From a virus (taxonomy: Duplodnaviria; Heunggongvirae; Uroviricota; Caudoviricetes), in IMG/VR virus record IMGVR_UViG_2703718793_000014: a stretch of DNA of 37,137 bases; one strand, written 5' to 3'. A program made the position numbers and the translations under genes. The notes beneath the pieces are model-generated. The model was not told the origin of the DNA and did not search any database. It saw nothing but the letters and a program-made list of their open reading frames with translations. This document shows positions 4,746-31,573 of the stretch, piece after piece. Each line of letters begins with the position of its first letter. Within the stretch, counting starts at the first letter, position 1.

Positions 4746-5111
4746 ATGATTCTCGCCAACGACTTTCTTGAATACCTGCTCAACACAGAACGTGATCTTG
4801 CCGCTCGCGTGCGTGATCGTTATGACATGTACCTGAAATCCATGCCTGTACCGCAGCTCGCTGACGGAAAAATTGTTATTGATGGTCGCTACGTGATCGA
4901 CAGCCATGAGGGAAATTACAGGCTTTACCGCATTGAAGGTGGCACCCCGTCCGTTATTGGCATTTACCAGCGCCCATCCTCTGCAATCGTCGATGTGATT
5001 GCCGACAGCATCCGCATCACACATCGCCATGCCGACACAGAAGACACCGTGCTGGAAATTCAGCGGCTGGCTACAGTCTGCCGCGACACCCTGAATGGCA
5101 TGACGAAGTAA
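4746..5111 (+). CDS. Hypothetical early protein (121 aa)
   Basis: AAGAGG Shine-Dalgarno upstream; ends just before the start of gene A. Confidence 0.55.
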   Translation: MILANDFLEYLLNTERDLAARVRDRYDMYLKSMPVPQLADGKIVIDGRYVIDSHEGNYRLYRIEGGTPSVIGIYQRPSSAIVDVIADSIRITHRHADTEDTVLEIQRLATVCRDTLNGMTK

Positions 5112-5117
5112 ATCACT

Positions 5118-13168: not shown

Positions 13169-13322
13169 TGCTCCCCCTGAGTAATTACAGGAAGATTACC
13201 CGCGCGCGAAACTGTTCTCCTTAACCCCCTGTTCTGGCTGTTTTCTTACAACAAAAGCCCTTTGTATCAGCCTGTTACGCTTTGCCATCATGACTGAAGA
13301 ACCAGTCAGAGGGGCAAAAACT

Positions 13323-14159: not shown

Positions 14160-14181
14160 TAAGACAAAGGAGCAAATTTTT

Positions 14182-15234: not shown

Positions 15235-15279
15235 TCAACTCACGGCGGGCATCATACCCGCCTGTAACGGAGAGAAAAA

Positions 15280-16080
15280 ATGATTACTCCTGCACAGCAA
15301 CACTGGCAGAACGTGATGGCACAGCGCGCAGGCCGGGCGAATGAAGGCGTGGACCACGCCGCGCGTACCGCGCATGAAGAGGTGCTGTATCGTCTGCGTC
15401 TGGCACAGGCCCGGCTTAAGGGCGTACAGGCCAGAAGCGCGAAAGCCGCCATCAAAAAAGAGTTGTTGCCGGACTTTTCCGGCTGGATTGAGGGAACGCT
15501 GGAGGCTGACGGCGGGCAGCAGGATGAAGTGATTGCCACGCTGATGGTGTGGGCGATTGACTGCGGCGATCTTCCGCTGGCGCTGCGTATTGGTGCGTAT
15601 GTGGTCCGTCACAACCTCATCATGCCGGATAACTTTGGCCGTACTGCTGCCACGGTACTGACCGAAGAAATCTGTAATCCGGTACTGACGCAGGCCGGGA
15701 CGGATGCCGACGCGGATTTGTCCGCCTTTATCGAACCACTGGACACCCTCCGGGAGATTGTCACCGACCAGGACATGCCGGACGAAGTGCGCGCCAAATT
15801 ATGCAAAGCGTGCGCCTTTGCCCGCCGTGGCCTGAGTGATGCGGACAGCATGGCCCTGTCACTGAAGCTGCTGCGCGAAGCAATGCACCTGAACCCGAAC
15901 GCAGGTGTGAAACGCGAGATTGCAACCCTTTCCCGCGCCCTGAAAAAAGCCGATTCCGCAGCCGCACCAGAAGACGCCAGCGCACAGCAGACGCAGGACG
16001 AAAGCAGCAAAAGTAAAAAGACAACGCGGAAGCCTGCAACACGAAAAACCACCGCGACGCAGAAGGCGAAGCGCGGTTAA
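15280..16080 (+). CDS. M: Terminase endonuclease (small) subunit (P2 gpM family)
   Basis: 266 aa; position after N and a basic K/R-rich C-terminal tail are typical of gpM. Confidence 0.8.
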   Translation: MITPAQQHWQNVMAQRAGRANEGVDHAARTAHEEVLYRLRLAQARLKGVQARSAKAAIKKELLPDFSGWIEGTLEADGGQQDEVIATLMVWAIDCGDLPLALRIGAYVVRHNLIMPDNFGRTAATVLTEEICNPVLTQAGTDADADLSAFIEPLDTLREIVTDQDMPDEVRAKLCKACAFARRGLSDADSMALSLKLLREAMHLNPNAGVKREIATLSRALKKADSAAAPEDASAQQTQDESSKSKKTTRKPATRKTTATQKAKRG

Positions 16081-16182
16081 CGACTGACCCCGTCAGCGGG
16101 CGGCGTGCGCGGTGTTCCGGTTTGACTCCGTGACCGTTTACACCGCGCACCCACCGCCCGATTTTTTTCAGGAGTGAACCCC

Positions 16183-16677
16183 ATGAGTATGGTTGCCAGA
16201 ACTGAACCCGGACCCGCAGAGGACGACATCACCGATACCGATGATGGCGATACCCGCATTTCAGCGGGTGCATTCTGGCCGGATATTGTGCTGCGCGAGC
16301 TGCGTCTGGCGGTACGACTGCCGGGCCGCGTGACCACCTCCCGCCTGCTGCATACTGCCACCGGGGCTGTGGCACACGTTACCCGCGAGCTGGAAGCATG
16401 GCAGCAGGAACAGCAGGCAGCTGGCCATCAGACGCTGGCCGATGTTCCGGCACCCGTAATTAACGGAGAAAGCGTCAATCTCTGGCACTGGCGCAATGCT
16501 GTTTATACCGCCACGCGCGCCCTGATTCTGGAGCGTTACCGCGATGCGGACACAACGGACAAGGGCGACCGCCGGGCGGACGCACTGGATATACAGACAT
16601 CGGATTTGTGGCGCGATGTGAGCTGGGCCATCTCTGACATTCTGTGCCGCCCGCGAATCTTTGCGGAATTGTGCTGA
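16183..16677 (+). CDS. L: Head completion/stabilisation protein (P2 gpL family)
   Basis: Start at ATG 16183 (AGGAG 9 nt upstream); the track ORF begins at GTG 16174; stop overlaps the X start (ATGA). Confidence 0.8.
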   Translation: MSMVARTEPGPAEDDITDTDDGDTRISAGAFWPDIVLRELRLAVRLPGRVTTSRLLHTATGAVAHVTRELEAWQQEQQAAGHQTLADVPAPVINGESVNLWHWRNAVYTATRALILERYRDADTTDKGDRRADALDIQTSDLWRDVSWAISDILCRPRIFAELC

Positions 16678-16877
16678 TGAAAGTGAAGGCACTGGAAGGC
16701 GACACCGTGGATTCGCTCTGTTTCCGGTACTACGGCACGACGCAGGGCGTCACCGAAAAGGTGCTGGATGCCAACCCCGGACTCTGTCAGCAGGTATTTC
16801 TGAACGCCGGGCAGGAAGTGGAGATGCCGGAGCCGGAGAAGAAGAAACGAGAAATGATTCAGTTGTGGGGGGAGTAG
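16677..16877 (+). CDS. X: Tail protein X (P2 gpX family, LysM-like)
   Basis: 66 aa from internal ATG MKVKALEGDTVDSLCFRYYG...ANPGL; pattern matches gpX. Confidence 0.8.
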   Translation: MKVKALEGDTVDSLCFRYYGTTQGVTEKVLDANPGLCQQVFLNAGQEVEMPEPEKKKREMIQLWGE

Positions 16878-16879
16878 CA

Positions 16880-17203
16880 GTGAGCACCATTCAAACAGGG
16901 ATCACAGAGCAGGTTATTGCGTGGCTCTTTGACCACCTGCCAACGGTGTATGCAGTAGGCGCGGCGGTCAGCATTTCCGCGCTGATGAGTCTTTATGACG
17001 GACGAACACTGGTTCAGACCGTAACGGGATCGCTGGCGTGCGGCGTTCTTGCCATGGCCGTGGCCGGGTCGTTGCGCTTCTTCGGGTTTCCTGAAGATGC
17101 CGTGACGTTTATCGGCGCATCAATCGGTTTTATGGGGGCAGAGAAAGCACGCGACAAGGTTATTGCGGCCTTTAATCGCAGGGTGAAGGAGAAGGACGAA
17201 TGA
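16880..17203 (+). CDS. Holin-like membrane protein
   Basis: About 107 aa from GTG 16880 (start uncertain); three hydrophobic segments and a charged C-terminal tail; positioned just before the endolysin gene. Confidence 0.55.
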   Translation: MSTIQTGITEQVIAWLFDHLPTVYAVGAAVSISALMSLYDGRTLVQTVTGSLACGVLAMAVAGSLRFFGFPEDAVTFIGASIGFMGAEKARDKVIAAFNRRVKEKDE

Positions 17204-17592
17204 GCAACACATTTAAATTCAGCAGCCGGAGCGAAAAGAATTTGCAGGGCGTAAATCCTGATCTGGTGAAAGTGACCCGACGGGCACTGGAAATCTCGGA
17301 AGTGGATTTTGGTATCACCGAAGGGTTGCGCAGCCGTTACCGCCAGAAGCAACTGGTGGCCACGGGTAAGAGCCAGACCATGAACAGCCGCCACCTTACG
17401 GGACATGCCGTGGATGTTGTGGCTTATATCGGCAGCCAGGTGTCATGGGAATGGCCGCTGTACGAAAAAATCGCAGCAGCATTCAGACAGGCCAGCCGGG
17501 AACTGAATATTCCGGTGGAATGGGGAGGCGACTGGAAGACTCTGAAAGACGGACCGCATTTTCAGTTACCACACGGAGCCTATCCGGCATGA
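17200..17592 (+). CDS. Endolysin, peptidase M15 family (L-alanyl-D-glutamate peptidase type)
   Basis: 130 aa; zinc-binding motif SRHLTGHAVDVVAY and C-terminal DGPHFQL are typical of M15 peptidase endolysins; not the lysozyme fold of P2 K. Confidence 0.8.
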   Translation: MSNTFKFSSRSEKNLQGVNPDLVKVTRRALEISEVDFGITEGLRSRYRQKQLVATGKSQTMNSRHLTGHAVDVVAYIGSQVSWEWPLYEKIAAAFRQASRELNIPVEWGGDWKTLKDGPHFQLPHGAYPA

Positions 17593-17996
17593 AGCTCTGG
17601 CCCACGCTTGGCGTCGCTTTCCTTCTGATTGCCGGATGGGGAACATCCATGCGTCTGTCGTGGTCGCTGGGCCGGGAGAACGCCAGAAACGAAGCGCAGG
17701 CCAGCACCCTGAAAAGTACCGCCGACACCCTGAATATCATCAGCGCCGGGGTACAGGATATGCAGCAGGTGCTGGCGCAACTCCGCGTGGAAAATCAGCA
17801 ACGCAATCAGGACGGAGAGGTAAGACGTGAACAGCTACGCAACGATATTGCAAAAGATGAATGCGCCCACGCTTTGCCTGACGCTCGTTTTACTGACAGG
17901 CTGCGCAGGCACGCAGAACGCGCCACTGCCAGCGCCGTCAGTCCGGCTTATACCGCAGACGCTGACCATACCGGTAACGCCTCCCCCCTTCCCTGA
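17589..17996 (+). CDS. Rz-like inner-membrane spanin (LysB-like)
   Basis: Start MKLWPTLGVAFLLIAGWG (N-terminal TM) overlapping the endolysin stop (ATGA); coiled-coil periplasmic domain. Confidence 0.75.
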   Translation: MKLWPTLGVAFLLIAGWGTSMRLSWSLGRENARNEAQASTLKSTADTLNIISAGVQDMQQVLAQLRVENQQRNQDGEVRREQLRNDIAKDECAHALPDARFTDRLRRHAERATASAVSPAYTADADHTGNASPLP

Positions 17997-18147
17997 TACT
18001 CCCACATGGGGAAATCTCGGTATATGGGGCGACCGCCTTCTGGATGCACTGGAAACCTGTAACGCGGATAAACGGGCCATTGAATTACTGGAACAGCGCA
18101 GGCTGCAACGACTGAACAACGAGGATAACAACCATGCTGAAAACTGA
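17857..18147 (+). CDS. Rz1-like outer-membrane lipoprotein spanin (LysC-like)
   Basis: Begins embedded in the Rz-like gene in another frame; signal peptide with lipobox LLTGC; proline-rich. Start codon uncertain (17827 or 17857). Confidence 0.65.
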   Translation: MNAPTLCLTLVLLTGCAGTQNAPLPAPSVRLIPQTLTIPVTPPPFPDTPTWGNLGIWGDRLLDALETCNADKRAIELLEQRRLQRLNNEDNNHAEN

Positions 18148-18601
18148 TTCCCTGCGTGAAGCCATGACCCGTTCATGCCGATGGTGTCAGGCCAACCCGG
18201 AAAAATTCACCATTTTCGTGGAGAGCGGCAACATTGAAACGACCGGAGAAACGCCCTCGTTTGTTTACCGCTATCAGATGGTGATGTTTGTCATGGATTA
18301 CGCCGGGGAGCTGGACGACCTCACGCTGCCGCTACTGGCGTGGTTATCCGAAAATCAGCCACAGTTGTTGCTCAATCCGGAGCGTAATCAGGACATCAAA
18401 TTCTCCGCCGTTATCAATGACGATGACAGCGCCGATCTCCTGTTTACGCTCCCCCTGCGGGAACGCGTTCGCATCACGCGCAGCAGTCAGGGCACACCGC
18501 AGGCAGAACACCTGCCTGAGCCAAAACCCCGCCTGCCATCTTCCGAAGGCGACTGGTCGCATGTATTCCAGGATGTGACGTGGGGTGAAAGCGATGGATA
18601 A
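18134..18601 (+). CDS. R: Tail completion protein R (P2 gpR family)
   Basis: 155 aa; position and translation consistent with gpR. Confidence 0.8.
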   Translation: MLKTDSLREAMTRSCRWCQANPEKFTIFVESGNIETTGETPSFVYRYQMVMFVMDYAGELDDLTLPLLAWLSENQPQLLLNPERNQDIKFSAVINDDDSADLLFTLPLRERVRITRSSQGTPQAEHLPEPKPRLPSSEGDWSHVFQDVTWGESDG

Positions 18602-19229
18602 GGCATTCACCCGCGTGGATGAAACCTTTGAGGCCATCCGCGACAGCCTGAATCAGCAGGCCATCAATAACATCGCCAGAAAGCTGGCACAGGATTTACG
18701 CCGCGCCCAGCAGGCGCGTATCCGGTCACAGAAAGCGCCGGACGGGACCGCGTGGACACCACGCAGACGCCGCGTAACCCGGATACAGGAACGCATTCGC
18801 TTTATCTGGAATAACGAAGCACGCACGCTGAAAAACTGGCATCACGACACGGGGAAATACGGGCGAACCATTACCGGGTGGGATGAGGATAAAAACAATA
18901 TCCGCACGTTTTACCGGGATGACATCGACCGTTTTCTGGAAATACGCACCCGGCGCATCAACCAGGACAGCACAAAGCGCGTCCCCATGTTCGTAAAACT
19001 GCGCACCGCCCGCTACCTGAAAGCCCGTGCAGATGCTTCCGGTGTGACGGTGGGTTACAGCGGCGTGGCCGCACGTATTGCACGCGTTCATCAGTTCGGT
19101 GAGCGCGATCAGGTTGCGCCGGGCATTTTCACCGATTACCCGGTACGTGAGCTGCTGGGTATCAGCCAGGCAGATGAGCGCCTGATTTATAACACGGTGC
19201 TGGGCCGGATTGCGGAGGCTGTACGGTGA
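18594..19229 (+). CDS. S: Tail completion/virion morphogenesis protein S (P2 gpS family)
   Basis: Start at ATG 18594 overlapping the R stop (ATGGATAA); the track ORF starts at GTG 18585. Confidence 0.75.
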   Translation: MDKAFTRVDETFEAIRDSLNQQAINNIARKLAQDLRRAQQARIRSQKAPDGTAWTPRRRRVTRIQERIRFIWNNEARTLKNWHHDTGKYGRTITGWDEDKNNIRTFYRDDIDRFLEIRTRRINQDSTKRVPMFVKLRTARYLKARADASGVTVGYSGVAARIARVHQFGERDQVAPGIFTDYPVRELLGISQADERLIYNTVLGRIAEAVR

Positions 19230-19807
19230 GCGCAGAACTCATGCGACTGCTGAGCAACATCATCCGTACCGGGATCATCTCTGAAGTTGATGAGGAATCC
19301 TGGTGCGTGCGCGTTCGCAGCGGCGAACTGGAAACAGGCTGGCTGCGCTGGAACACCACGCGCGCGGGAGCCTTCAATGTGTGGCTGCCGCCATCACCCG
19401 GCGAACAGGTGGTAATTGCCTGCATTGGCGGCAACCCGGAAACCGCCATGATAATTGGCAGCCTGTGGAGTGATGCCATTCCGGCCCCCGGCAAAAGCCT
19501 GAAAGAAATCGTGGTCAGCGCGCCGGATGGCGCGGTGTTCCGCTACGACGCGGACGCAGGCGCACTGAGCGCCAGCGGCATGAAAACAGCCACCCTGCAG
19601 GCATCCGTCAGCGTGACACTGGATACGCCCGTCGTGGAATGCACAGACCTTCTGAGAACGGCGACGCTTGACGTCACAAAAGGGGGAAAGATGAGCGGCA
19701 ATATCACGCACAGCGGCGGCAATTTCACCTCAAACGGCATCACAGTGCATACGCATAAACACGGTGGCGTTAAAGGTGGCAGCGATTCGACAGGAGGCCC
19801 GCAGTGA
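19226..19807 (+). CDS. V: Baseplate spike/assembly protein V
   Basis: 193 aa; P2 gpV-like translation; first gene of the V-W-J-I-H-G block. Confidence 0.85.
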   Translation: MSAELMRLLSNIIRTGIISEVDEESWCVRVRSGELETGWLRWNTTRAGAFNVWLPPSPGEQVVIACIGGNPETAMIIGSLWSDAIPAPGKSLKEIVVSAPDGAVFRYDADAGALSASGMKTATLQASVSVTLDTPVVECTDLLRTATLDVTKGGKMSGNITHSGGNFTSNGITVHTHKHGGVKGGSDSTGGPQ

Positions 19808-20154
19808 CAACCCGCTACACAGGAATGAACCCGGACGGAACGGGAAACCTGAACGATATGGAGCACCTGAAACAGTCAGTCAGGGACATCCTGACCACCC
19901 CGCTGGCAAGCCGGGTTATGCGACGGGAATATGGCAGCCTTGTGCCTGATTTGATTGACGAACCCATGAATAACACCACGCGTCTGCAATGCATGAGTGC
20001 TGCCGTGATTGCACTGACACGATGGGAACCCCGCATTGCCCTGGATGCCATCGATGTTGTCTGGAAAGCAGGAGGCCGCGCCGGGGTGACGCTGTCGGGC
20101 ACTGTCATGCAGACCATGCAGAATGTTGAATTAACCATCACGCTGAGAGAGTAA
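19804..20154 (+). CDS. W: Baseplate wedge protein W (gp25-like)
   Basis: 116 aa; P2 gpW-like. Confidence 0.85.
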   Translation: MTTRYTGMNPDGTGNLNDMEHLKQSVRDILTTPLASRVMRREYGSLVPDLIDEPMNNTTRLQCMSAAVIALTRWEPRIALDAIDVVWKAGGRAGVTLSGTVMQTMQNVELTITLRE

Positions 20155-20157
20155 ATC

Positions 20158-21054
20158 ATGCCTGCCGTTGACCTTTCCCAGTTACCGGAACCCGCCATCA
20201 TAGCGGAGCCTGACTTTGAGGCAATTCTGGCTGACACAAAGGCCATGATGATTGCGGCTTATCCCGCCGAACAGCGTGAAGCCGTTTCCGCCGCGCTGGA
20301 GCTGGAATCGGAACCCCTTAACGTTATCGCTCAAACCATGTCGTTTCGTGAAATGCTGTTACGCCAGCGGGTTAACGAGGGCGCACGCGCCTGCATGTTA
20401 AGCCACAGTTCAGGGACAAACCTGGACAACCTCGCGGGCAATATGAACACAAAGCGCCTGGTTATCACTCCGGCAACGGATACCACCGACGCGGTGATGG
20501 AGAGCGACACCTCGCTGAGACTGCGGGCGCAGCGGGCGTATGACGGCCTGAGTGTTGCAGGCCCGTCAGGCGCATACGAGTATTTTGCACGCAGCGCCAG
20601 CGGTCTGGTGCGTGATGCGCGGGCCATCAGCCCGTCTCCGGCCTGTGTGACGGTTTCCATTCTGTCCACTGAAGGCGACGGCACAGCAACGGAGGCGTTG
20701 CTTAATACCGTTCGCGCCGTTCTGAATGCAGAGGATACCCGCCCGGTGGCCGACCGCCTGACGGTACAGAGCGCCAGAATCGTGACATGGCGGCTGAATG
20801 CAAAACTGTACTTTTACCCCGGCCCGGAATCCGAACCTATTCTGGCCGCGGCAGAATCGTCATTCAGGAAGTGGCTGGCTGAACAGGGGCTTATCGGTCA
20901 GGACGTGGCGTTGTCCGCCATTGCTGCCGCACTGCATGTGCACGGTGTGCAACGCGTGGAGATAATCGAACCCACACAGAATATGGCCATCAGCGACATA
21001 CAGGCGGCGCGCTGTGAGTCATTTATCATCAGCGAAGGTGGGCGCAATGAGTAA
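20158..21054 (+). CDS. J: Baseplate assembly protein J
   Basis: 298 aa; P2 gpJ-like. Confidence 0.85.
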   Translation: MPAVDLSQLPEPAIIAEPDFEAILADTKAMMIAAYPAEQREAVSAALELESEPLNVIAQTMSFREMLLRQRVNEGARACMLSHSSGTNLDNLAGNMNTKRLVITPATDTTDAVMESDTSLRLRAQRAYDGLSVAGPSGAYEYFARSASGLVRDARAISPSPACVTVSILSTEGDGTATEALLNTVRAVLNAEDTRPVADRLTVQSARIVTWRLNAKLYFYPGPESEPILAAAESSFRKWLAEQGLIGQDVALSAIAAALHVHGVQRVEIIEPTQNMAISDIQAARCESFIISEGGRNE

Positions 21055-21577
21055 TTCGTTGTTACCACCATCAGCCAGCAATTTCATGCGTTGTGCCGAA
21101 GCTGTCGGAGCGCGCATTACAAATATCCCGGTAGACCTCAACACGCTGTGGTCGCCGGACACATGCCCGGTGCATCTGCTGCCTTATCTCGCCTGGGCAT
21201 TTTCCGTTGACCGCTGGGATCGCAACTGGCCGGAAGAGACAAAGCGACAGGTGATTCGTGATGCATGGCTGATACACCGACACAAAGGGACCATCAGCGC
21301 ACTGCGCCGGGCCATTGAGCCGCTGGGATACCTCATTCGTGTGTCTGAGTGGTGGGAGTTCGGCGGAGAACCGGGAACATTTACCGTTGAAGTCGGCACG
21401 CTGGACAGTGGCGTGACGGAGGAAATGTATCTGGAAATGGAGCGGTTGATTGCTGATGCCCGCCCGGTCAGCCGCCACATGACAGGGCTGAATATCATTC
21501 AGGAGATCCCGGGGGATATTTTCGCGGCGGCAGCAACTTACGACGGTGAAGTCATTACCATTTATCCGGACGATTAA
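21047..21577 (+). CDS. I: Baseplate/tail-fibre attachment protein I
   Basis: 176 aa from ATG 21047 ([13 protein letters not shown]), overlapping the J stop. Confidence 0.8.
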
Positions 21578-21579
21578 GC

Positions 21580-23739
21580 ATGAGTACCACAACACGAAAA
21601 TTTAAAACCATTATCACTGATACTGGTGCCAAAAAATTAGCTCAGGCAGCCGCGCCAGATGGTAATCCTGTCCGCCTGACTCACATGGCCGTGGGCGACG
21701 GTGGCGGCACGTTGCCCACACCAGACAGTAAGCAGACCCGTCTGGTGCATGAGGTGTGGCGACATACTGTTAATCGCGTCATCCTGGACGCAACACATCA
21801 GAACCGCATTATTGCGGAGCTGGTTATTCCTCCTGAAACGGGCGGATTCTGGATCCGGGAAATTGGTGTATTTGATGAGCACGGCGATTTGATCGCGGTG
21901 GGCAATACTGCCGAAAGTTACAAACCAACCGTTGCCGAAGGATCCGGACGTGCACAAACATTTCGCACCATTCTGACCGTATCCAGCACTGCCACCGTGG
22001 CGCTTACCGTGGATAACACCATGGTTATGGCCACAGTGGATTACGTGAATGACAAACTGAAAGAACATGAACAGTCACGACGTCACCCGGACGCCTCGCT
22101 GACCGCAAAAGGCTTTGTTCAACTCAGTAGCGCCACCAACAGCACGTCTGAAGCACTGGCCGCAACGCCGAAAGCGGTCAAGGCAGCCTATGACCTTGCT
22201 ATCGGGAAATATACCGCACAGGACGCCACTACAGCGCGGAAAGGACTTGTCCAGCTCAGTAGCGCCACCAACAGCGATTCAGAAACGCTGGCGGCAACAC
22301 CAAAGGCGGTAAAGGCAACATATGACCTTGCTAACGGGAAATATACTGCGCAGGATGCCACCACAGCGCGGAAAGGCCTTGTCCAGCTCAGTAGCGCCAC
22401 CAACAGCACGTCTGAAGCACTGGCCGCAACACCGAAAGCGGTAAAGACAGCATATGACCTTGCTAACGGGAAATATACCGCTCAGGACGCTACGACAGCA
22501 CAAAAAGGGATTGTCCAGCTAAGCAGCGCGACTAACAGCACATCTGAAACGCTTGCCGCGACACCGAAAGCAGTGAAAGCAGCTAATGACAATGCGAATG
22601 GTCGGGTACCTTCTGCCCGTAAGGTGAATGGTAAGGCGCTTTCAGCGGATATTACACTGACGCCGAAAGATATTGGTACGCTTAACTCAACAACTATGTC
22701 ATTCAGCGGTGGTGCTGGTTGGTTCAAATTAGCAACGGTAACCATGCCGCAGGCGAGTTCTGTTGTTTCAATTACGTTGATTGGTGGCGCGGGATTTAAC
22801 GTGGAGTCACCTCAACAGGCAGGTATATCTGAACTTGTTCTTCGTGCGGGAAATGGAAATCCAAAAGGTCTTACTGGTGCGTTATGGCGACGGACATCGG
22901 TTGGATTTACTAATTTTGCATGGGTGAATACATCCGGTGATACCTATGATGTTTATGTTGAAATAGGTAATTACGCCACAGGTGTTAATATTCAATGGGA
23001 TTATACCAGTAACGCCAGCGTAACGATTCATACTTCACCAGCATATTCTGCTAATAAGCCGGAAGGATTAACGGACGGTTCTGTTTATTCGCTGTATATT
23101 TCGCCTCATGAACTTTATCCGGTTGGCGCACCGATCCCTTGGCCATCAGATACCGTTCCGTCTGGTTATGCCCTGATGCAGGGGCAGACTTTTGACAAAT
23201 CTGCATACCCGAAACTTGCAGCCGCTTATCCGTCAGGCGTGATCCCTGATATGCGTGGCTGGACGATTAAGGGCAAGCCCGCCAGTGGTCGTGCCGTATT
23301 GTCTCAGGAACAGGACGGCATTAAATCGCACACCCACAGCGCCAGCGTATCCAGTACGGATTTGGGTACGAAAACCACATCGTCGTTTGATTACGGGACG
23401 AAAACAACCTCACTATTTGACTATGGGACCAAAACTACCAGTAACGCCGGGAGTCACACGCATTCAATACCAACATCAGATGGTGCAAACCAGGGGGGGA
23501 AAATTCCACTGACATCTGGGCGTCTGGCAACTCAATATACATCAGCAACAACAGGTTCCTCTGGCTCACATTCTCATACTGTAGGTATTGGTTCTCATCA
23601 GCACACTGTCGGTATTGGTGCACACACGCACTCGGTTGCGATTGGCTCACATGGACACACCATCACCGTTAACGCTGCTGGTAACGCGGAAAACACCGTC
23701 AAAAACATCGCATTTAACTATATTGTGAGGCTTGCATGA
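21580..23739 (+). CDS. H: Tail fibre protein H
   Basis: 719 aa; conserved N-terminal baseplate-attachment region, internal tandem 44-aa repeats, and a C-terminal His-rich tip [34 protein letters not shown]. Confidence 0.9.
22108..22600 (+). repeat. Tandem 132-bp (44-codon) repeats inside H, about 3.7 copies
   Basis: Repeat units start at 22108, 22240, 22372 and 22504; each encodes KG(F/L/I)VQLSSATNS...LAATPKAVK...[17 protein letters not shown] with few substitutions. Confidence 0.85.
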
Positions 23740-24638
23740 TTACGCTCATTCTTTCTGCACCAGTAACAGAAATGGCTGAAGCATTTAAGCGGGTATTTGC
23801 AAACGCAGATAATGTGAATATTGTCGGAAAGCCATTTGAAACAATCAGAGAATTTGACTGTATGGTAAGTGCGGCAAATAGTTTCGGCCTGATGGATGGC
23901 GGTGTTGATGCCGCCATTACCGCATTCTTCGGTACTCAGTTACAGTCCCGCGTTCAGAATCATATTCTTCGTGAATATCTAGGCGAGCAGCCTGTAGGAT
24001 CTGCGTTTGTTATTGAAACGGGGCATAATCATCACCCCTGGCTGGTACATGCGCCAACAATGCGTGTTCCGTTGACAATTGACGGAACAGACGCTGTATA
24101 TAACGCAACCTGGGCCGCTCTGCTTGCCATCTTTCAGCACAATAAAAACGCAACGACAGACAGGAAAATAAAGACGGTGGTATTCCCTGCGATGGGGGCT
24201 GGATGTGGTCAGGTACCGTTTGAAAGTGTTGCCCGCCAGATGAAGCAGGCCTGGGATAACTTTAATAAAAAAACAGAATCAATTAACTGGGAATACGCAC
24301 AATCCCGCCAGTCGGCAGTATTTGGCACATATGCATACTGTCCGGGTAATTCTGTTTGCCGTTATGCGGATGCTAAATATATTGGATGCGGCGATTATCG
24401 GACGTATTGCTCACGTTCCGGGCAGGTCTGTATTAACCCTGAACATCAGGCTGATGATGTACTGATACAACATCAGGCTAATAACCGGTTTCGCCCTGAT
24501 TCGCATATACACCGGATTAATCCAGAAAATCCCGTAGGTAATGTCACCTCTGGCGCACATAGCCACAGAAGTAGCATCGTTATTGGTGCTCACACCCATA
24601 CGCTCAATAAACAATATTCTGTCTCTGATATTAAGTAG
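23736..24638 (+). CDS. Macro-domain protein with tail-fibre-tip-like His-rich C-terminus
   Basis: 300 aa; macro-domain blocks [46 protein letters not shown] and [20 protein letters not shown] align by eye to E. coli YmdB-type macro domains. The C-terminus [20 protein letters not shown] echoes the HxH tip of H. Start overlaps the H stop. Confidence 0.7.
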
Positions 24639-24646
24639 AGGTGAAC

Positions 24647-25225
24647 ATGGATTTCAGAATGAGTGAACAACCACGGACCATAAAAATTTATAATCTGCTG
24701 GCCGGAACTAATGAATTTATTGGTGAAGGTGACGCATACATTCCGCCTCATACAGGTCTGCCAGCAAACAGTACCGATATTGCACCGCCAGATATTCCGG
24801 CTGGCTTCGTGGCTGTTTTCAACAGTAATGAGGCATCGTGGCATCTCGTTGAAGATCATCGGGGTAAAACGGTTTATGACGTGGCTTCCGGCGACGCGTT
24901 ATTTATTTCTGAACTCGGTCCGTTACCGGAAAATGTTACCTGGTTGTCGCCGGATGGAGAGTGTCAGAAGTGGAACGGCACATCCTGGGCGAAAGATGCA
25001 GAAGCAGAAAAACTGTTTCGGGTACGGGAGGCAGAAGAAACAAAAAACAGCCTGATGCAGGTAGCCAGTGAGCATATTGCGCCACTTCAGGATGCCGTAG
25101 ATTTGGATATTGCGACGGAGGAAGAGGCATCGTTACTGGCTGCATGGAAGACATATCGGGTATTGTTGAATCGTGTTGATACAACAGTAGCAGCGGATGT
25201 TGAGTGGCCAGTCGCCCCACAATAA
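24647..25225 (+). CDS. G: Tail fibre assembly chaperone (P2 gpG / Tfa family)
   Basis: 192 aa from ATG 24647 (GAGGT upstream); position after the fibre genes; translation typical of Tfa proteins. Confidence 0.8.
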
Positions 25226-25230: not shown

Positions 25231-25260
25231 AAAAGCCATCGACAGAAATATCGATGGCTT
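25231..25260. terminator. Bidirectional terminator hairpin between convergent genes
   Basis: AAAGCCATCGA-(loop)-TCGATGGCTTT with flanking A/T runs; lies between the G stop and the stop of the minus-strand acetyltransferase. Confidence 0.6.
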
Positions 25261-25268
25261 TATGTACT

Positions 25269-25841
25269 CTATTTATACAATACAACACCACTCTTTTTAG
25301 TTATATATGTGCAGTTTGATGGTATATCTTTATTTATAAAAGACATTGCACCTATTTTTACATTATCCCCAATTTTACGTGATAATCCAATGATGCAACA
25401 ATTAGCTCCGATATCAACGTTACTACCAATTTTTACTCTTGAACTAGGCATATCACCATCTATCTGTCCAATGGTAGTATTCTGTCGTAATACCAGATTT
25501 TCACCCGCATCAACAGCAAAATGAACAACAATTCCAGCATGATGGGGAATTGTCAACCCTTTTCCAATATTTGCGCCCAATCCTATTTCACAACCAAACT
25601 TGTTAATTATTTTACTGTTTAACTTTTTGGCTGCTTTCTTATGTAATTTATTACCATTAATATACATTTCGTTAGCCAACCGCCACCAGAAAAGGAAATT
25701 CCGGTTACGCTGCTTTTTCTCTCTTAAAAGCCTCCAGATATCCATACGTTTCCGCCGAATTACTTCATGTTTCCAGAAGTTTTTTAAATTAGTAGAGTTT
25801 CCAAATAAAACAAAGTGAATTGCCATTAAGTAAGATAGCAC
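25269..25841 (-). CDS. Hexapeptide-repeat (left-handed beta-helix) acetyltransferase, CysE/WcaB-like
   Basis: Visibly AT-rich ORF; translation has canonical hexapeptide repeats GLGANIGKGLTIPHHAGIVV...IGSNVDIGANCCIIG...IGDNVKIGAMSFIN. Start chosen at GTG 25841 (AAGGAG 6 nt upstream); the track ORF extends to ATG 25874. Confidence 0.7.
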   Translation of the reverse strand: MLSYLMAIHFVLFGNSTNLKNFWKHEVIRRKRMDIWRLLREKKQRNRNFLFWWRLANEMYINGNKLHKKAAKKLNSKIINKFGCEIGLGANIGKGLTIPHHAGIVVHFAVDAGENLVLRQNTTIGQIDGDMPSSRVKIGSNVDIGANCCIIGLSRKIGDNVKIGAMSFINKDIPSNCTYITKKSGVVLYK

Positions 25842-25997
25842 GATAATCTCCTTAATTATTATTTCAGACCACACATGTTATAAGGTTAAGAGATTATAAA
25901 ATCCTGTTATTTGTTATTCAAAAACAATTTTCTGAGAAGGACATACAACAGCAAGTCGCCAGTCACCTTCATCAGGAAATTGGCGACATACGTTAAA

Positions 25998-26492
25998 TCA
26001 GAGCAGCCCCTTAACTGAGCTGGCCGCGCTATTAAGGGATGATGTCACCTTATCTTTGAAGCCGGACAGCATATCGCTGAACGATGAGGATTGCAGGCGC
26101 TCCCGCAAATCCTCATCACAGCGTTCAAGAGTCAGTGAAAATTCTATCTTTTTCGCCTTACCGTAGCGATCAAACTCGGAGCGGGTCGTATTCGTTCCGG
26201 TCAGGACATACATGCCGTAAATCTGCCCGACGCCATCAATCAAAGGCCAAGGACGTCCTGTATATGCCTGCGTGGTCAACAACGACAGCGACACTTCGCC
26301 ACCAGTAATCTCAGGATAAAGAACACCAGAAAGAACGATGCGATCATCACCTGCACCGATATACTGCCAGCTTGCTGAACGGTTAACGCGTTCATTTTTC
26401 ACATGTCGCCAGCTTTTGTTTTGCTGTAACTGCTGATGCGGCAACGTGCGCAGCTCAAAAACAAACATGCCGTAGATCATCATCATGGCCAT
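25998..26492 (-). CDS. U: Tail protein U (P2 gpU family)
   Basis: 164 aa; last gene of the minus-strand sheath/tube/tape-measure block; gpU-like translation. Confidence 0.8.
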   Translation of the reverse strand: MAMMMIYGMFVFELRTLPHQQLQQNKSWRHVKNERVNRSASWQYIGAGDDRIVLSGVLYPEITGGEVSLSLLTTQAYTGRPWPLIDGVGQIYGMYVLTGTNTTRSEFDRYGKAKKIEFSLTLERCDEDLRERLQSSSFSDMLSGFKDKVTSSLNSAASSVKGLL

Positions 26493-26498
26493 GACTCC

Positions 26499-29342
26499 TC
26501 AATCTTTATCGTAAAAACTGCCACGCCTGGCACGGGCGCGCCGTTCCATTTCTGCCCTGACCATTTCGCCGACCAGTTTCGCCAGTTCGCGGGGATTCTG
26601 CGTAACAACGTTATGCAGATGAACATGAATTTCACCGCCAAATCCGGAGGCAACAGGCTCCCGGTTACGGGAAGTTGCAGGAACTGATGCCACTGGCGAT
26701 CGTATGGCCTCCACCACCGGGCGGGAGCTGGCCGCAACAACAGGGACCAGCGCCGGAGGCAGCGGAGCCGGGACCACGGGTGTGATATTAATTGCGGGGG
26801 CAGGCTTACTGACCTGCGCAATCTTCCGCTCCTGCCACTCCCCACGAACAGCAAGTGCGCGGGGCAGGTTCTTAAAGACAATATCGCCGGGGCCAATGCG
26901 TTTTTTTGTCTCATCAACCAGCTTACCTGTGTTATCAGCAATTTTGCTGAGTCTGCGTAGCGTGCCGGTATTGCTGTCTGTGAGAGGTTTGTTGTCTTTG
27001 GGTTTATCATCTCCGGTGCCATTGCTATTTCCCGCAGACTTCGGCGGATTGATTTTCGCAATGTCTCCCTGAAACAGAGCAACCTTGTCCTGAAGAATGG
27101 CCGCACGTTGTGCGTCTTCGATTTTCTTGCGCGCCCTTTCCGCTTCATCCGGAAGCACACCGAGTTTTTCAAGTATCCACGCCAGCGTATCCAGCAACAT
27201 TTTTGCAGGCGTCAGAACAAGCTGTAACGCACCACCAAGAACGTTACCGAATACCTCGCCAGCACTGGTACATTTATCCAGCGTTTCCTTGCTGGACTCC
27301 ATCGGTGACAGCAGCGATTTAAACCAGTTAAACACCTGGCTGATCCCGCTTCCGATTGCGTCAAAAACAGGGCCAAACCGTTCAAAGGTGTCGCGCAACG
27401 GGGTCAGCCTTTCCATAATCCCGCTGAACACCCCGGCAAAGAAAGCCCTGATAGGATCCCAGTATTTCCAGATAAGAACGGCAGCTCCGGCAAGCGCAGC
27501 CACGATAAGACCAACCGGACTGAACAACGCCCCGATAACGCCTCCCAGTAAAGAAACGGAACCCGTCACCATTCCCCATAGCGCAGGTAACACCCTGACG
27601 ACATTCATTGACCGGGTAAGAATGTCAAAACCAAGACGCAGGGTGGCCAGCTTCCCGTAAAGCACCCCAATAACCAGCGACAACGAGCCAATCGTTGCAG
27701 TCATTGCCAGCAACGCACCGCCTGCTATCAGTAGCTGGCGCGTCAGTACCGGATGGGCCTGCGCCAGCGAGGTGATTTTTTCAAGCACCCGCGTGAGCCA
27801 CTGCGTGACAGAACGCAGCGGACCGTCAACCAGATCACTGATGCGAATACGAAGACCTTCCCATGCGCTGTCGAGATTTTTCAGGTCCCCATCAAGATTA
27901 TCAGCCATTACTTTTGCGACGCGATCGGCCTCTCCCCTTGCCCCCTGCAATTCTCTGGTCAGTTTTTGCAGCTCTCCTGAACCAGCCGCCGCAACAAGCG
28001 TCTGCAAACCAACGAACGCCTCTTCTCCGGCGATGTCCTTGAAGAAGGAGACCTGGTCCACCTGTCCGTATTTTTGTGTCGCCTTATAGAGATCAAGCAG
28101 CACATCCTCCATCGGGCGCATTTTGCCTCTGGCGTCAGCAACTGACACCCCCAGCTCTTTCAGTGCATCAGCCGCAGCTTTTGGCGGTGATGCAAGGCGG
28201 GACAGACTTGCGCGCATGGCCGTGCCAGCATCGCTTCCGCGAAGACCATTATTGGCAAGCATCCCGGCCATGGCCGCCGCTTCTTCAAGACTGATACCAA
28301 GTTTTGCGGCAACCGGACCGGTATACTTCATGGTTTCGCCCAGCGCGCGTAAATCAGTATTGGTCCGGGTAAATGCTGCTGTCAGCGTATCGCCCACCCG
28401 GTCCATTTGATCGGCTGTCAGGTTGAACTGTGTGAGGATATTGGAGCCTATATCAGCCGTCTCGCCGAGTTCGACGCCACCTGCCAGCGCCATATTAAGA
28501 ACACCGGGCAATGCGGCCTGAATGGCCTGCGGAGTAAAACCAGCCATTGCCAGAAAGCTCTGCCCACTGGCGGCATCACTCGCAGTAAACTGTGTTTCAG
28601 AGCCAAGTTTTAACGCCTGCTCACGCAGCGCCTTAAACTGCGGGCTGTTTTTGTCGATTCGCGTCAGTGCCTGAACGCGGGACATCTCTTTGCCGAACCC
28701 GATCGCAGGCTGCAAAAAACGCCCGGCAGCATAGCCGCCCGCCGCTGCCGCACCAATTGCCAGCGCACCACCTGTTTTCAGTTTTCCCGCGGTTTCCTGC
28801 GCGCGCGAATACCGCTCACGCGCCTGCGTTACACGCGCAAGCGCCTGCCGTTCGCGTTCAAGCTGGTTGTTGTATTGTTCGGTGCGTCTGATGGCCTGCT
28901 GAATGGTGTTATCGCTGCCTGTCAGGGAAATGCCGTGGCGTTTCAGCTCTCCGCCAAGTTCCCGCATTTTCTGAATTTCCCGTGTGCGCGATTCATTCAG
29001 GCGTTCAAGCCGGGTGCTTAACTGCTGCATCAGCTTTTGTTGTTTTTCGCTGAGCACTGTACCCGTGCGTTGTAACTGATTAAGGGCGTTAAGCTGGCGT
29101 CGTGCTTTCACGATGCCAGCATCCGCTTTACTGACAGCGTCGCGGGCGCGCTCAAATGATCGCGCCTGACGCTCGAGATTTTTGATCGCCCCCTGCGTTC
29201 GCTGGATGGAGTCACCAAACTGCCCCATCAGGCGGCGTGCGTTTTCGGCAGGTCGGGTCAGCCTGTCAACGGCGCTGAAAGCGACCCGGATATCAAGAGT
29301 CTTCATTGTCTGCATTCCCGCTGCGAAGTGCCGCCCGCTCAC
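26499..29342 (-). CDS. T: Tail tape measure protein T
   Basis: 947 aa; long helical protein with hydrophobic central segments and Ala/Gly-rich repeats; start overlaps the end of the E' frame, as in P2. Confidence 0.9.
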   Translation of the reverse strand: MSGRHFAAGMQTMKTLDIRVAFSAVDRLTRPAENARRLMGQFGDSIQRTQGAIKNLERQARSFERARDAVSKADAGIVKARRQLNALNQLQRTGTVLSEKQQKLMQQLSTRLERLNESRTREIQKMRELGGELKRHGISLTGSDNTIQQAIRRTEQYNNQLERERQALARVTQARERYSRAQETAGKLKTGGALAIGAAAAGGYAAGRFLQPAIGFGKEMSRVQALTRIDKNSPQFKALREQALKLGSETQFTASDAASGQSFLAMAGFTPQAIQAALPGVLNMALAGGVELGETADIGSNILTQFNLTADQMDRVGDTLTAAFTRTNTDLRALGETMKYTGPVAAKLGISLEEAAAMAGMLANNGLRGSDAGTAMRASLSRLASPPKAAADALKELGVSVADARGKMRPMEDVLLDLYKATQKYGQVDQVSFFKDIAGEEAFVGLQTLVAAAGSGELQKLTRELQGARGEADRVAKVMADNLDGDLKNLDSAWEGLRIRISDLVDGPLRSVTQWLTRVLEKITSLAQAHPVLTRQLLIAGGALLAMTATIGSLSLVIGVLYGKLATLRLGFDILTRSMNVVRVLPALWGMVTGSVSLLGGVIGALFSPVGLIVAALAGAAVLIWKYWDPIRAFFAGVFSGIMERLTPLRDTFERFGPVFDAIGSGISQVFNWFKSLLSPMESSKETLDKCTSAGEVFGNVLGGALQLVLTPAKMLLDTLAWILEKLGVLPDEAERARKKIEDAQRAAILQDKVALFQGDIAKINPPKSAGNSNGTGDDKPKDNKPLTDSNTGTLRRLSKIADNTGKLVDETKKRIGPGDIVFKNLPRALAVRGEWQERKIAQVSKPAPAINITPVVPAPLPPALVPVVAASSRPVVEAIRSPVASVPATSRNREPVASGFGGEIHVHLHNVVTQNPRELAKLVGEMVRAEMERRARARRGSFYDKD

Positions 29343-29511
29343 GCCAGCTAACCACTTCGCCGGGCGTCATCATGAAGATTTCGGCGGGCGACCAGTTAAA
29401 AATAACGGCAATATCTGCCACAAAGTCTTCTATGTGCTCAAAGCACACAACCGTGATCAGGCTTCCGTCGCCTGTTCGTTCTTCCCGCCAGAGTCCGCAC
29501 CGCTCAAAAAA
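29293..29511 (-). CDS. E' extension reached by programmed -1 frameshift from E (E+E' tape-measure chaperone)
   Basis: Slippery heptamer T-TTT-TTG in the E frame (plus-strand 29505-29511); the -1 frame continues open to 29293 and overlaps the T start. This is the conserved G/GT-type frameshift arrangement. Confidence 0.75.
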   Translation of the reverse strand, partial: FFERCGLWREERTGDGSLITVVCFEHIEDFVADIAVIFNWSPAEIFMMTPGEVVSWRERAALRSGNADNEDS

Positions 29512-29822
29512 TTTACGGCAACCACACATAACTGAATAAAGTCACGGGATGCCATTTTTTTGATCGTCACTTCATCCAGTCGCGGTGATGTCACGCGTGA
29601 CAGCAGCGTAAACATGGATTCCGCTTTCAGATTCAGCACATCAGACAGCGACAAATCTCGCAGAGATCCAGCCTGCTCAATAGCCCCGGTGATCTCCACA
29701 TACGTGATTTTTTCGCCGCCTCGCTCAATTGGTTGGGTAAGTTTTACACCACGCTCACTGGTTTCTTTCACAGTGTCAGTAACTACCGTGTTTTCGGTAT
29801 CGATGTTTTTCGTCTCTTTCAT
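29457..29822 (-). CDS. E: Tail assembly chaperone E
   Basis: 121 aa; located between tail tube and tape measure genes; contains the frameshift site near its 3' end. Confidence 0.8.
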   Translation of the reverse strand: MKETKNIDTENTVVTDTVKETSERGVKLTQPIERGGEKITYVEITGAIEQAGSLRDLSLSDVLNLKAESMFTLLSRVTSPRLDEVTIKKMASRDFIQLCVVAVNFLSGADSGGKNEQATEA

Positions 29823-29876
29823 CAGGAAACTCCTTTCAGTCAGAGGCGACGCACTGCGCCGCCTGCATATTACTTA

Positions 29877-30389
29877 TCAGCCAAGCCCAAGCGCGGAACG
29901 GATGCGATCGGGCACAATGTCCTTGCCGTCCTTCCGGTAAATGAAGTTCAGCAGGTCAATCTCCCACAACGGGCGATCGTTAACACTCAGCTTGTAGTAG
30001 GTGTTTTTAATGGCGTAAGTGTGTGATGTGGCTTCGCCCTGTTTGGCTTCCCCCATATCAATTTCCGTCACACGTCCGCGCATTTCGACTTCATACAGGT
30101 CGCTTTCATCATCGGTGTAGTATTCCCCCGCAAAACGCAGTAGCGTGCCGTCAATCGTGCCGCCATACTTCAGGAACAGCTCACGAACTGCGCCCCCCAT
30201 GACAAAGCTCGCATCAAGCGCGGAGTCGTCCAGGCCGAGGTCAATACTTACCGCACCCATCATGCCACCACCCCGGTAGCTGTCGGTTTTGCGCGTCAGT
30301 TTAGGCAGGGTGACGGACGTCACCTTACCCACTTCGTTTTCACCATCCACAAACAGCGTAAAAAAGCGAAGATGTTTTGGTACAGCCAT
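29877..30389 (-). CDS. FII: Tail tube protein FII
   Basis: 170 aa; gpFII-like; overlaps the sheath gene stop by one base. Confidence 0.88.
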   Translation of the reverse strand: MAVPKHLRFFTLFVDGENEVGKVTSVTLPKLTRKTDSYRGGGMMGAVSIDLGLDDSALDASFVMGGAVRELFLKYGGTIDGTLLRFAGEYYTDDESDLYEVEMRGRVTEIDMGEAKQGEATSHTYAIKNTYYKLSVNDRPLWEIDLLNFIYRKDGKDIVPDRIRSALGLG

Positions 30390-31573
30390 CAGGCACCTCC
30401 CAGCACCGCAAATGCGGGACCAAAGAATTCATCAGTAAACGACTGGTAAAGCTCCATGTCTTCCAGCGGAGGAACGGGCGTATATTTGTAGCGAATACGC
30501 ACACGCCCCTGACGTAAATTCGTGGTGCTGTTATCCACGATGTCATACCAGCACTCCGCGCCAATCAGTTTCCCGGCAGTAACCAGTGAATCCAGTTTTG
30601 CCCTGATGGCACTGATAACATCCTTCACGTTCGCAGGTGTCAGTGGACTGTCGATGGTTTCAAACTGCGCTTCCGCAATTGAATCAGCCAGCACCTGTGC
30701 GGTTCGGGTATACACCTCAAAGATGTAGGCGTTCGTTTCCGGTGTGCGGTTGCCCCAGAAGCGGAACCCGTTGCGACGAATAATGGTCGTGATTTCTTTG
30801 TTGTTGAGGCTGTTGGCATCGCTGTCTTCGGCCTGCAACGACCAGAACACATGCCTCGACATCCCCAGCACATTTTTAACCGGAACGTTGGACAGTGATT
30901 TGTGCCATCCCTGCTCATGGTCAATGTACGCACGAAGGCCGCACGCATAGGCAGGCGCGGGGAACGTTTCGTTTTTGCCACTTTTCGGGTTGTAGGCGAT
31001 GAAGTCCGGCCATAAGAGCATCACCTCACGTTCGTTGAATTTCTGGCGGTAGGTAATCGCCTCAGCCATTGTGTTACAGCCGTGACATGAGGCATACACA
31101 AACGCGCGCAGTTTACCCGCAATCACGCACAGGGATTTTGTCACCGCCTCCGTGTCCAGCTCCGGCGCGGCCAGAATACGCGGACGGTATCCGATGCTTT
31201 CATCCTGCTCTGCAACAAGCAGCGCATACATCCCCGTATAGCTGCCGTCAGATTCAGAACCACCGATAACCAGTTGATCCTGCGTCTTACCGCCTTCTTC
31301 TTTGTGTTCAGCCACGCGAACGACGATCACTTTTGTGCTCACCTGGTCTGCGATAGCCTTAAGCGCACGATAAAGCGTCCCCGTAGTCCCGCATTTTCCC
31401 AGCACGTCATTGACGCGGGTCAGCAGTGTGGGCTTGTTCAGCGGGAACAGCTCCGCGTCCGCATCATCTGCCGTTGCCACGATACCGATAACACTGGAAT
31501 CAACATCATTAATCGCTGTTACCAGGTCGGTACTTTCCGTAACACGGGCACCATGAAAACGAGTTTCACTCAT
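30389..31573 (-). CDS. FI: Contractile tail sheath protein FI
   Basis: 394 aa; gpFI-like translation; first gene of the minus-strand tail block. Confidence 0.9.
   Translation of the reverse strand: MSETRFHGARVTESTDLVTAINDVDSSVIGIVATADDADAELFPLNKPTLLTRVNDVLGKCGTTGTLYRALKAIADQVSTKVIVVRVAEHKEEGGKTQDQLVIGGSESDGSYTGMYALLVAEQDESIGYRPRILAAPELDTEAVTKSLCVIAGKLRAFVYASCHGCNTMAEAITYRQKFNEREVMLLWPDFIAYNPKSGKNETFPAPAYACGLRAYIDHEQGWHKSLSNVPVKNVLGMSRHVFWSLQAEDSDANSLNNKEITTIIRRNGFRFWGNRTPETNAYIFEVYTRTAQVLADSIAEAQFETIDSPLTPANVKDVISAIRAKLDSLVTAGKLIGAECWYDIVDNSTTNLRQGRVRIRYKYTPVPPLEDMELYQSFTDEFFGPAFAVLGGA

Follow-up and report, generated by a model that had tools for sequence, protein, structure and literature searches.

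A macro gene between fibre and chaperone genes

In the P88-like (Xuanwuvirus) prophage recorded as IMGVR_UViG_2703718793_000014, the whole stretch of which (37,137 nucleotides) is here termed the window, the tail fibre gene H and the tail fibre assembly chaperone gene G, or tfa, are separated by an open reading frame (ORF) of 300 codons, which we call the macro gene (Table 1). Its product is composed of three parts, namely a macro module, a cysteine-rich block (Cys block) and a variable tail carrying His-x-His (HxH) motifs, which are recognizable when 16 family members, drawn from Escherichia, Salmonella, Erwinia and Citrobacter, are aligned. A preliminary description of the window, made from its letters, had proposed a macro domain at the N-terminus and a C-terminus resembling the tip of H, and both parts of that proposal were borne out by the searches described below. 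The gene itself is already annotated in databases; the combination of a macro domain, four conserved cysteines and an HxH tail in the fibre-Tfa slot is undescribed in the literature searched.

Residues 1-195 constitute a confident macro domain, with the Pfam model PF01661 (Macro) matched over its entire length (model positions 1-118 of 118, residues 44-169) at an E-value of 8.2e-19 and 68.1 bits against a curated cut-off of 22. An AlphaFold2 model built on an alignment of 126 sequences gives these residues a predicted local distance difference test score (pLDDT) above 90 and predicts the three-layer α/β/α architecture of the macro fold. An earlier run with 16 close relatives had yielded a pLDDT of 55 and was set aside, the larger alignment having mended the macro part, not the tail. 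Foldseek searches with the model recovered 199 PDB matches at E≤0.001, the best 50 of which are macro domains or designed proteins derived from the macro protein TTHA0132. The closest solved neighbour is the yeast ADP-ribose-1''-monophosphatase Ymx7/Poa1p (PDB: 1njr; E=7.5e-11, 198 aligned columns, rmsd 2.9), followed by TTHA0132, macroH2A, PARP9/14, OiMacroD, YmdB, DarG and MacroD2. The top matches in BFVD are also macro domains, the viral neighbours being macro proteins of jumbo phages and giant viruses, and a sequence search of solved structures gave 2dx6 as its best match (E ~3e-5), with none close.

Alignment with E. coli YmdB, taken from the K-12 genome record, places N48 and D58 of the macro protein opposite YmdB N25 and D35 at equal spacing, the latter two being the catalytic pair of MacroD-type enzymes. 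Across the 126 sequences N48, D58 and the DGG, GEQ and HxPTMRxP motifs are invariant, while D54-G55-G56-V57-D58 and G154-x-G156-x-G158 are invariant or nearly so and align with YmdB loops; the conserved pocket residues are completed by G83-E84-Q85 and H105-P107-T108-M109-R110. The glycine-rich loops that hold the diphosphate and distal ribose of ADP-ribose are present, and the ADP-ribose pocket is intact and MacroD-like. Fold and pocket residues, the absence of which would have spoken against the preliminary description, are hence both there.

Although the domain is thus Poa1p/MacroD-like and the protein would be expected to work as such an enzyme, it stays below the cut-offs of the YmdB-type equivalogs, of Macro_2 and of DarG. 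Poa1p is its best structural neighbour, and many of its relatives carry a precomputed match to PF14519 (Macro_2), but the two proteins are only 21% identical and the macro protein itself reaches 23.5 bits against the PF14519 cut-off of 27. Poa1p is a cellular enzyme acting on a by-product of tRNA splicing, and lacks a Cys/HxH extension. The MacroD-type proteins (YmdB, MacroD1/2, OiMacroD) share the fold, the Asn/Asp spacing, the GGV-D loop and the FPAxGxGxG phosphate loop, the last being evident in the alignment with YmdB; nevertheless, YmdB is 21% identical to the macro protein, in which the GDIT adenine motif is not recognizably kept, and NCBIfam equivalog models give only 21-52 bits against cut-offs of 200-315 (at best 52 against 246), so that it resembles these enzymes without belonging to those equivalog families. 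Relative to the MacroD types, its clade has a signature of its own that includes GEQPVG and HxPTMRVP. Identity with DarG or an anti-DarTG protein was considered and rejected: the PADLOC DarG model matched with E=0.004 and 14.5 bits over 39 residues, with no stretch passing alone, and no DarT was found, the neighbours in all loci inspected being fibre and Tfa genes. Orphan DarG-like enzymes are reported to counter DarTG, and the characterized anti-DarTG proteins belong to other phages and other gene contexts.

In the Cys block (residues 198-242) C202, C208, C225, C232 and H237 are invariant among the 16 family members, a motif that suggests a metal site, and the block is modelled, at low confidence (pLDDT 54-69), as small β-hairpins. 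When phage genomes were searched with tblastn it was seen only in the macro family and in one remnant, and the C-terminal 105 residues alone retrieved from a set of 5.8 billion proteins only three fragments, all of the same family. The idea that the block is a fibre module is therefore unsupported. The remnant lies unannotated at 5001-5183 of the Salmonella phage SEN34 (L005), after a tail fibre gene, tfa and an O-acetyltransferase gene; it comprises the Cys block only (residues 184-244, 57-59% identical), which suggests a decayed former macro cassette.

The tail carries HxH at residues 257-259, 275-277 and 286-288, and among all window ORFs of at least 100 residues the pattern G[AS]HxH is confined to H and the macro ORF. 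Three HxH motifs within the last 50 residues are unlikely to be accidental (p=4e-4 by protein shuffling), and when the C-terminal profile of the family was compared, using hhalign, with a profile of seven fibre tips, residues 244-289 aligned with the HxH block of the fibre (H residues 651-694) with a probability of 86% and E=5e-6. At the nucleotide level, a 22-nt repeat in H (23609-23630) recurs with 19 of 22 positions matching in the last HxH unit of the macro gene (24577-24598). Both length and sequence of the tail vary in the family, but HxH motifs occur in most members from several genera, the usual number of G[AS]HxH units being between one and three. The repeated G[AS]HxH is the likeness to the tips of fibres and spikes such as the T4 gp37 needle, T4 gp12, the P2 gpV apex and window H, from which the macro tail differs in having only one to three units, irregular spacing and variation between alleles. 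In the trimeric tips of gp37, gp12 and gpV, HxH motifs from three chains coordinate Fe or Zn, and by analogy with these triplets the four cysteines and HxH units might bind metal and oligomerize the macro protein, possibly helped by Tfa. A further expectation, that each macro tail should resemble its own fibre, failed, the best tail-fibre matches not being cognate pairs, which weakens the case for a metal-bound oligomer, as do the disorder of this part in the monomer model and the loss of one unit or of the entire tail from some abundant alleles.

Table 1. Features of the fibre-macro-Tfa region (window positions), with pairwise dN/dS for the three parts of the macro gene
Feature	Coordinates	Strand	dN/dS	Remarks
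Tail fibre gene H, 719 aa	21580..23739	+		PF12571, PF03406 and PF07484 matches; N-terminal tail-collar fibre domain, four Phage_fiber_2 repeats, Collar domain, HxH-rich distal part; counterpart in the identical O157 locus named 'phage tail protein' in RefSeq
Four consecutive HxH units in H (GSHSH..GSHQH..GAHTH..GSHGH), aa 664-693	23569..23658	+		Resembled by the macro tail
H/macro junction	23727..23739	+		GAGG, then ATG overlapping TGA
Macro ORF, 300 aa	23736..24638	+		From the ORF listing of the window
Macro domain, aa 1-195	23736..24320	+	0.02-0.15
Cys-rich block, aa 196-245	24321..24470	+	0.11-0.29	Family-specific
Variable C-terminal tail, aa 246-300 and stop	24471..24638	+	0.3-0.5	0.87 in one 26-codon comparison
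HxH motifs of the macro tail	24504-24512, 24558-24566, 24591-24599	+
Macro/G junction	24638..24649	+		GAGGTG (24638-24643), Shine-Dalgarno from the insert, then Tfa ATG at 24647
Tail fibre assembly chaperone G/Tfa	24647..25225	+		Caudo_TAP
Hairpin, terminator-like	25232..25261			Closes the fibre operon and the opposite-strand acetyltransferase gene; outside the macro gene

An optional insert in the fibre-Tfa cassette

Profile searches identify the macro protein with PHROG 2613, annotated as of 'unknown function' (E=7.1e-149, residues 1-271 on profile positions 1-272 of 274), of which it is a full member, Cys block included, as it is of the RefSeq family 'macro domain-containing protein'. The family includes STM2588.1n of the Gifsy-1 prophage of Salmonella LT2, the record of which already notes 'contains pfam01661, Macro', and is represented by hundreds of intact copies in prophages of Escherichia, Salmonella, Erwinia and Citrobacter. 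The window gene is 99.9% identical in DNA to that of WP_000631344.1, with copies in O157:H7, O55:H7 and other E. coli. In all loci inspected the order is fibre-macro-Tfa with a fibre of the Stf/H type. These loci include the P2-like window prophage and O157 PV15-279, the lambdoid Gifsy-1 and a lambdoid prophage on a linear plasmid, pCAVP367-48, where the gene follows stfR, a P1-like plasmid, and phage Chuche. The same slot is accordingly occupied on at least three phage backbones, P2-like, lambdoid and P1-like.

This slot is otherwise empty in the great majority of cases. A query composed of the H tip, the macro gene and G was compared with 5,426 complete E. coli genomes, 4,711 of which (~87%) carry the fibre-tip/Tfa cassette, in 10,412 places. 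At only 115 of these places does the match span 80% or more of the query; elsewhere the fibre tip directly adjoins Tfa, as in stfR-tfaR of the Rac prophage (L007) and tfaQ of Qin in K-12. The macro gene occurs in 128 genomes (~2%), at 131 places of which 22 are on plasmids, and is absent from ~99% of cassette places, in agreement with the earlier remark that only fibre and chaperone normally occupy this position. All copies listed from E. coli are annotated as an intact 'macro domain-containing protein' and each follows a fibre gene.

Closely related prophages further delineate the insert. E. coli O103 RM8385 has a prophage of the same type with I, H, G, the acetyltransferase gene, gpU and gpT, and without the macro gene; in the isogenic P88-like prophage L008, as in Rac stfR-tfaR, the gene is lacking, the junction is clean and homology breaks off at precisely the stop of H and the start of G. 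P88, P884B11 and 520873 are also without the gene, which Chuche possesses. As delimited by BLAST, homology to macro-less cassettes ends at window positions 23740-23743 and resumes at 24647-24653. In the empty junction, GAGGCTTGCATAATG, the H stop overlaps the Tfa start, and where the gene is present the sequence is GAGGCTTGCATGATT...TAGAGGTGAACATG. Whether or not a cassette has the macro gene, its Tfa gene keeps 91-96% DNA identity, and the cassettes that contain it have five different hypervariable fibre tips, kinds that are also found in macro-less cassettes. Given that isogenic prophages with a clean junction lack the macro protein, it would not be needed for fibre assembly, and the unchanged Tfa together with the five fibre tips suggests that it is neither a required chaperone nor tied to one receptor specificity. 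Within H, the stretch at 23403-23601, between outgoing and returning HxH units, is wholly different among otherwise 95%-identical cassettes and is likely to be the receptor-binding determinant, varying independently of the macro gene. The possibility that the H/G junction is a general hotspot for cargo was discarded: the one other case of an extra gene that was inspected, a SAM methyltransferase, sits after tfa and not between the two genes.

At its 5' end the macro gene overlaps H, the ATG at 23736-23738 sharing an ATGA with the TGA of H at 23737-23739 (GTGAGGCTTGCATGATTACG), and GAGG (23727-23730) stands 5 nt upstream of the ATG within the final codons of H. The ORF ends in TAG (24636-24638), followed by GAGGTGAAC and, 8 nt from the macro end, by the start of G; the Gifsy-1 counterpart shares 11 nt with tfa. 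The preliminary description had called the gene translationally coupled to H: the overlap is there to be seen, and coupling is what such an overlap suggests. Fusion of H and the macro protein through a programmed -1 frameshift was dismissed, for although the frames are compatible the slippery heptamer is absent. Alleles without the macro gene use this GAGG for the start of Tfa (GCATAATG), and by this comparison the insert captures the ribosome-binding site of Tfa and brings a new one for it. Since it takes over one site and supplies another, the macro gene is very probably a late member of the fibre operon, made with the fibre and its chaperone.

These features bear on the suggestion, also raised in the preliminary description, that the gene is a lysogenic-conversion factor expressed from the prophage, conferring, for example, immunity to an ADP-ribosylating toxin or another benefit on the host. 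Morons do cluster near fibre genes, as seen with the acetyltransferase gene here and with pagK/gogB, which adjoin the Gifsy-1 cassette. However, a promoter scan found no excess of promoter-like sites over chance and none just 5' of the macro gene, which overlaps the stop of a late structural gene and lies embedded in the late fibre operon with overlaps and short gaps. Furthermore, its GC content of 45-50% matches that of the fibre tip and Tfa, as against 34% in the moron next door, and no partner ADP-ribosyltransferase was detected in the loci inspected. A role in lysogenic conversion is consequently very unlikely.

The neighbouring moron encodes a hexapeptide O-acetyltransferase (WcaB/EpsC/CysE-like; 25269-25874, minus strand, 34% GC) that is convergent with the fibre operon, with which it shares the terminator-like hairpin, and has a promoter-like site at 25921-25893 (10/12). 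It is also seen after the cassette in P88-like prophages of O157 and O103 and in the P1-like plasmid; it is absent from the Gifsy-1 and pCAVP367-48 loci. It is likely to be a classical moron that modifies surface polysaccharide. The gpU-T-E-FII-FI tail block (25998-31573) lies on the minus strand, opposite to the H-G block (13290-25225, plus strand), an arrangement different from the gene order of phage P2, and the fibre and tail-tube operons thus converge on the acetyltransferase moron. Downstream of gpD are genes for a 356-aa protein with a PIN_12 domain (32996-34066, plus strand) and a short DNA-methylase-like ORF (35427-35912, plus strand), possible cargo or defence genes at the prophage end. 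A complete ParM/StbA actin-like segregation protein is encoded beside the GPA replication gene (8017-8976, plus strand) of this integrated P2-family prophage.

Selection and alternative origins

Pairwise dN/dS values were calculated by region between the genes of the window, the lambdoid plasmid-prophage, the P1-like plasmid, phage Chuche and Gifsy-1 (Table 1), and show that the macro gene is genuine and under purifying selection. They bear directly on the proposal that the ORF is a non-functional product of an H-G rearrangement, whether a mosaic left by fibre recombination, a frame artefact or a pseudogene remnant. The 19 of 22 nucleotides shared by the last HxH unit and H might be taken to favour such an origin, but it is refuted by the full-length Pfam and PHROG matches, the confident fold, the strong purifying selection on the macro part and the hundreds of intact copies in several genera. 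The constancy of the three-part protein across genera and the clean, gene-sized pattern of presence and absence speak equally against it, and we accord it practically no credence.

A more serious alternative is that the gene is a hitch-hiker, a cytoplasmic housekeeping-type macro enzyme (clearing, for instance, ADP-ribose-1''-phosphate or O-acetyl-ADP-ribose) that landed once between fibre and tfa and spread passively, with the HxH tail as decaying captured fibre sequence. The macro module belongs to a clade of stand-alone proteins of about 200 residues, with 2,360 representatives at 50% clustering, and the macro part of the window protein is 47-55% identical to such tail-less cellular proteins, the Cys/HxH extension being peculiar to the prophage family within this clade. 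The flanks are 91-96% conserved across phages, which suits homologous exchange, Tfa is the same whether or not the macro gene is present, macro tails match foreign fibres as well as their own, and the tail has the highest dN/dS and sporadically loses HxH units or is truncated. On the other hand, the Cys block and at least one HxH unit are kept across Escherichia, Salmonella, Erwinia and Citrobacter even though dS is saturated (above 1.4-2), and dN/dS in the tail is still below 1. The Cys block, moreover, has no fibre counterpart and is therefore not a fibre relic, and a neutral gene would be expected to occur often as a pseudogene, whereas the listed E. coli copies are annotated as intact. Taken together, these observations leave passive carriage possible but doubtful.

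Several other relatives of the module were encountered. The same macro clade is found fused to WD40 propellers, to rhodanese and dual-specificity phosphatase domains, to RRM and to Hpt (P0134, P0139, P0148, P0152, P0201), in long proteins that are probably eukaryotic. In a 463-aa protein from a Logan assembly (P0018), which matches 80% of the query at 97% identity, ParM domains are joined to this macro protein; the same prophage has probably suffered a deletion there or been misassembled. An environmental bacterial contig (L010) encodes, at 5349-6645, two tandem stand-alone macro paralogues beside a gene for a HicB-like antitoxin and genes of the FemAB family.

The position of the gene also invites the view that its product is a structural or host-range accessory of the fibre, docked to fibre or Tfa through the HxH tail, with the macro domain working extracellularly, either as an additional adhesin or enzymatically on a ribose-phosphate- or acetyl-bearing surface polymer. 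The gene is directly 3' of a fibre gene within the fibre operon, analogous to the gp38 adhesin genes of T2/S16-type phages, its tail is fibre-like, many database copies are named 'phage tail protein', and a sugar O-acetyltransferase moron adjoins the cassette in both P2-like and P1-like contexts. The names appear, however, to be positional or legacy ones for which no experiment was found, and the acetyltransferase gene does not accompany the lambdoid cassettes of Gifsy-1 and pCAVP367-48. The macro protein has no sequence or Pfam similarity to gp38 or Tfa; Pfam gives no Caudo_TAP match in it, the Caudo_TAP gene, and hence the true Tfa, being the next ORF. Nor did Pfam detect a fibre shaft, collar or attachment domain, the N-terminus being occupied by the macro domain instead. 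In addition, the five hypervariable tips of the cassettes with the gene are of kinds that also occur without it, and the same fibre/Tfa pair works without the macro gene in thousands of genomes. All conserved residues lie in a nucleotide pocket typical of cytoplasmic ADP-ribose enzymes, and we know of no macro domain that acts on polysaccharide. An accessory of this kind hence seems unlikely.

A possible role in ADP-ribose-based conflict

In light of the above, we favour, with a probability of roughly 0.45, the reading that the macro protein is a late hydrolase or binder of an ADP-ribose derivative, co-expressed with the fibre and oligomerized by a metal-binding tail, that blunts an NAD/ADP-ribose-based host defence. 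The protein would hydrolyse, or at least bind, such a derivative late in infection, candidate substrates being ADP-ribose-1''-phosphate, O-acetyl-ADP-ribose, an ADP-ribosyl adduct or a signal derived from a TIR protein or NADase. The Cys/His tail would bind metal and drive oligomerization, probably trimerization as in the HxH shafts of fibres; assembly of the oligomer may use the downstream Tfa, and may put the enzyme on or near fibres and virions. Most likely it would serve to dampen an NAD+/ADP-ribose-based response of the host just as the late structural proteins appear. The gene would move between phages by recombination at its two flanks, both being highly conserved recombination targets.

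This interpretation is in keeping with earlier proposals on phage Macro proteins, which have been considered to counter mainly soluble ADP-ribose-derived signals or toxins and, when encoded among morphogenesis genes, to be probably packaged and deployed early (Iyer et al., PMC9503650). The proteins described there are likewise phage-borne macro domains near virion genes, but none has the four cysteines and HxH tail or a fixed fibre-Tfa slot. Delivery of an ADP-ribose hydrolase with the virion, as envisaged in the preliminary description, would be compatible with the data.

Several considerations nevertheless weigh against the reading of the macro protein as a late counter-defence enzyme. An enzyme made late is badly timed with respect to early-acting defences unless it is packaged, and one that is bound to the fibre would not enter the cell. 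The tail, disordered in the model of the monomer (pLDDT below 50), shows the highest dN/dS of the protein (0.3-0.9); some abundant alleles (P0001, P0031) have lost HxH units from it, and variants of 255 residues are truncated there, so that it could be a relic under weak constraint. The strict linkage to the cassette can be accounted for simply by recombination at the conserved flanks, and because the gene is present in only ~1% of cassettes any benefit would be a niche one. The stand-alone cellular homologues, on Chloroflexi-type contigs, offered no informative gene neighbourhood, and the literature searched contained no study of the family.

A more specific variant of the counter-defence idea takes the macro protein as an antidote linked to the trigger of the defence: a host TIR or ADP-ribosyltransferase system would sense the complex of folded side tail fibre and chaperone, and the co-translated enzyme, perhaps docked to the two through a fibre-mimicking HxH tail, would destroy or sequester the resulting ADP-ribose signal locally. 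In N4-like phages of Pseudomonas, sensitivity to type II Thoeris, the signal of which is His-ADPR, is set by a side tail fibre folded by a downstream chaperone (bioRxiv 10.64898/2026.06.04.730250). This finding offers a concrete reason for an ADP-ribose enzyme to be situated between fibre and chaperone, although it concerns Pseudomonas phages and not those of enterobacteria, and we consider the variant a speculative one of rather low probability. Were it true, host-range cassettes would carry their own counter-defence when moving between phages; trigger and antidote would travel together, and the gene would be a part of use in engineered phages.

If, conversely, the gene is only a passenger, it would illustrate how a gene can use conserved junctions within an operon to reach phages of unrelated backbone. 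In both events the family, an abundant one, is readily tractable, since Gifsy-1, Chuche and natural isogenic prophages, some having the gene and others lacking it, are at hand. Temperate enterobacterial phages, including the O157:H7 prophages and Gifsy-1, exchange host range mainly by way of fibre-tip/Tfa cassettes. An enzyme gene that lives only in this cassette, with an intact pocket and a fibre-like tail, would link these host-range modules to NAD/ADP-ribose biology.

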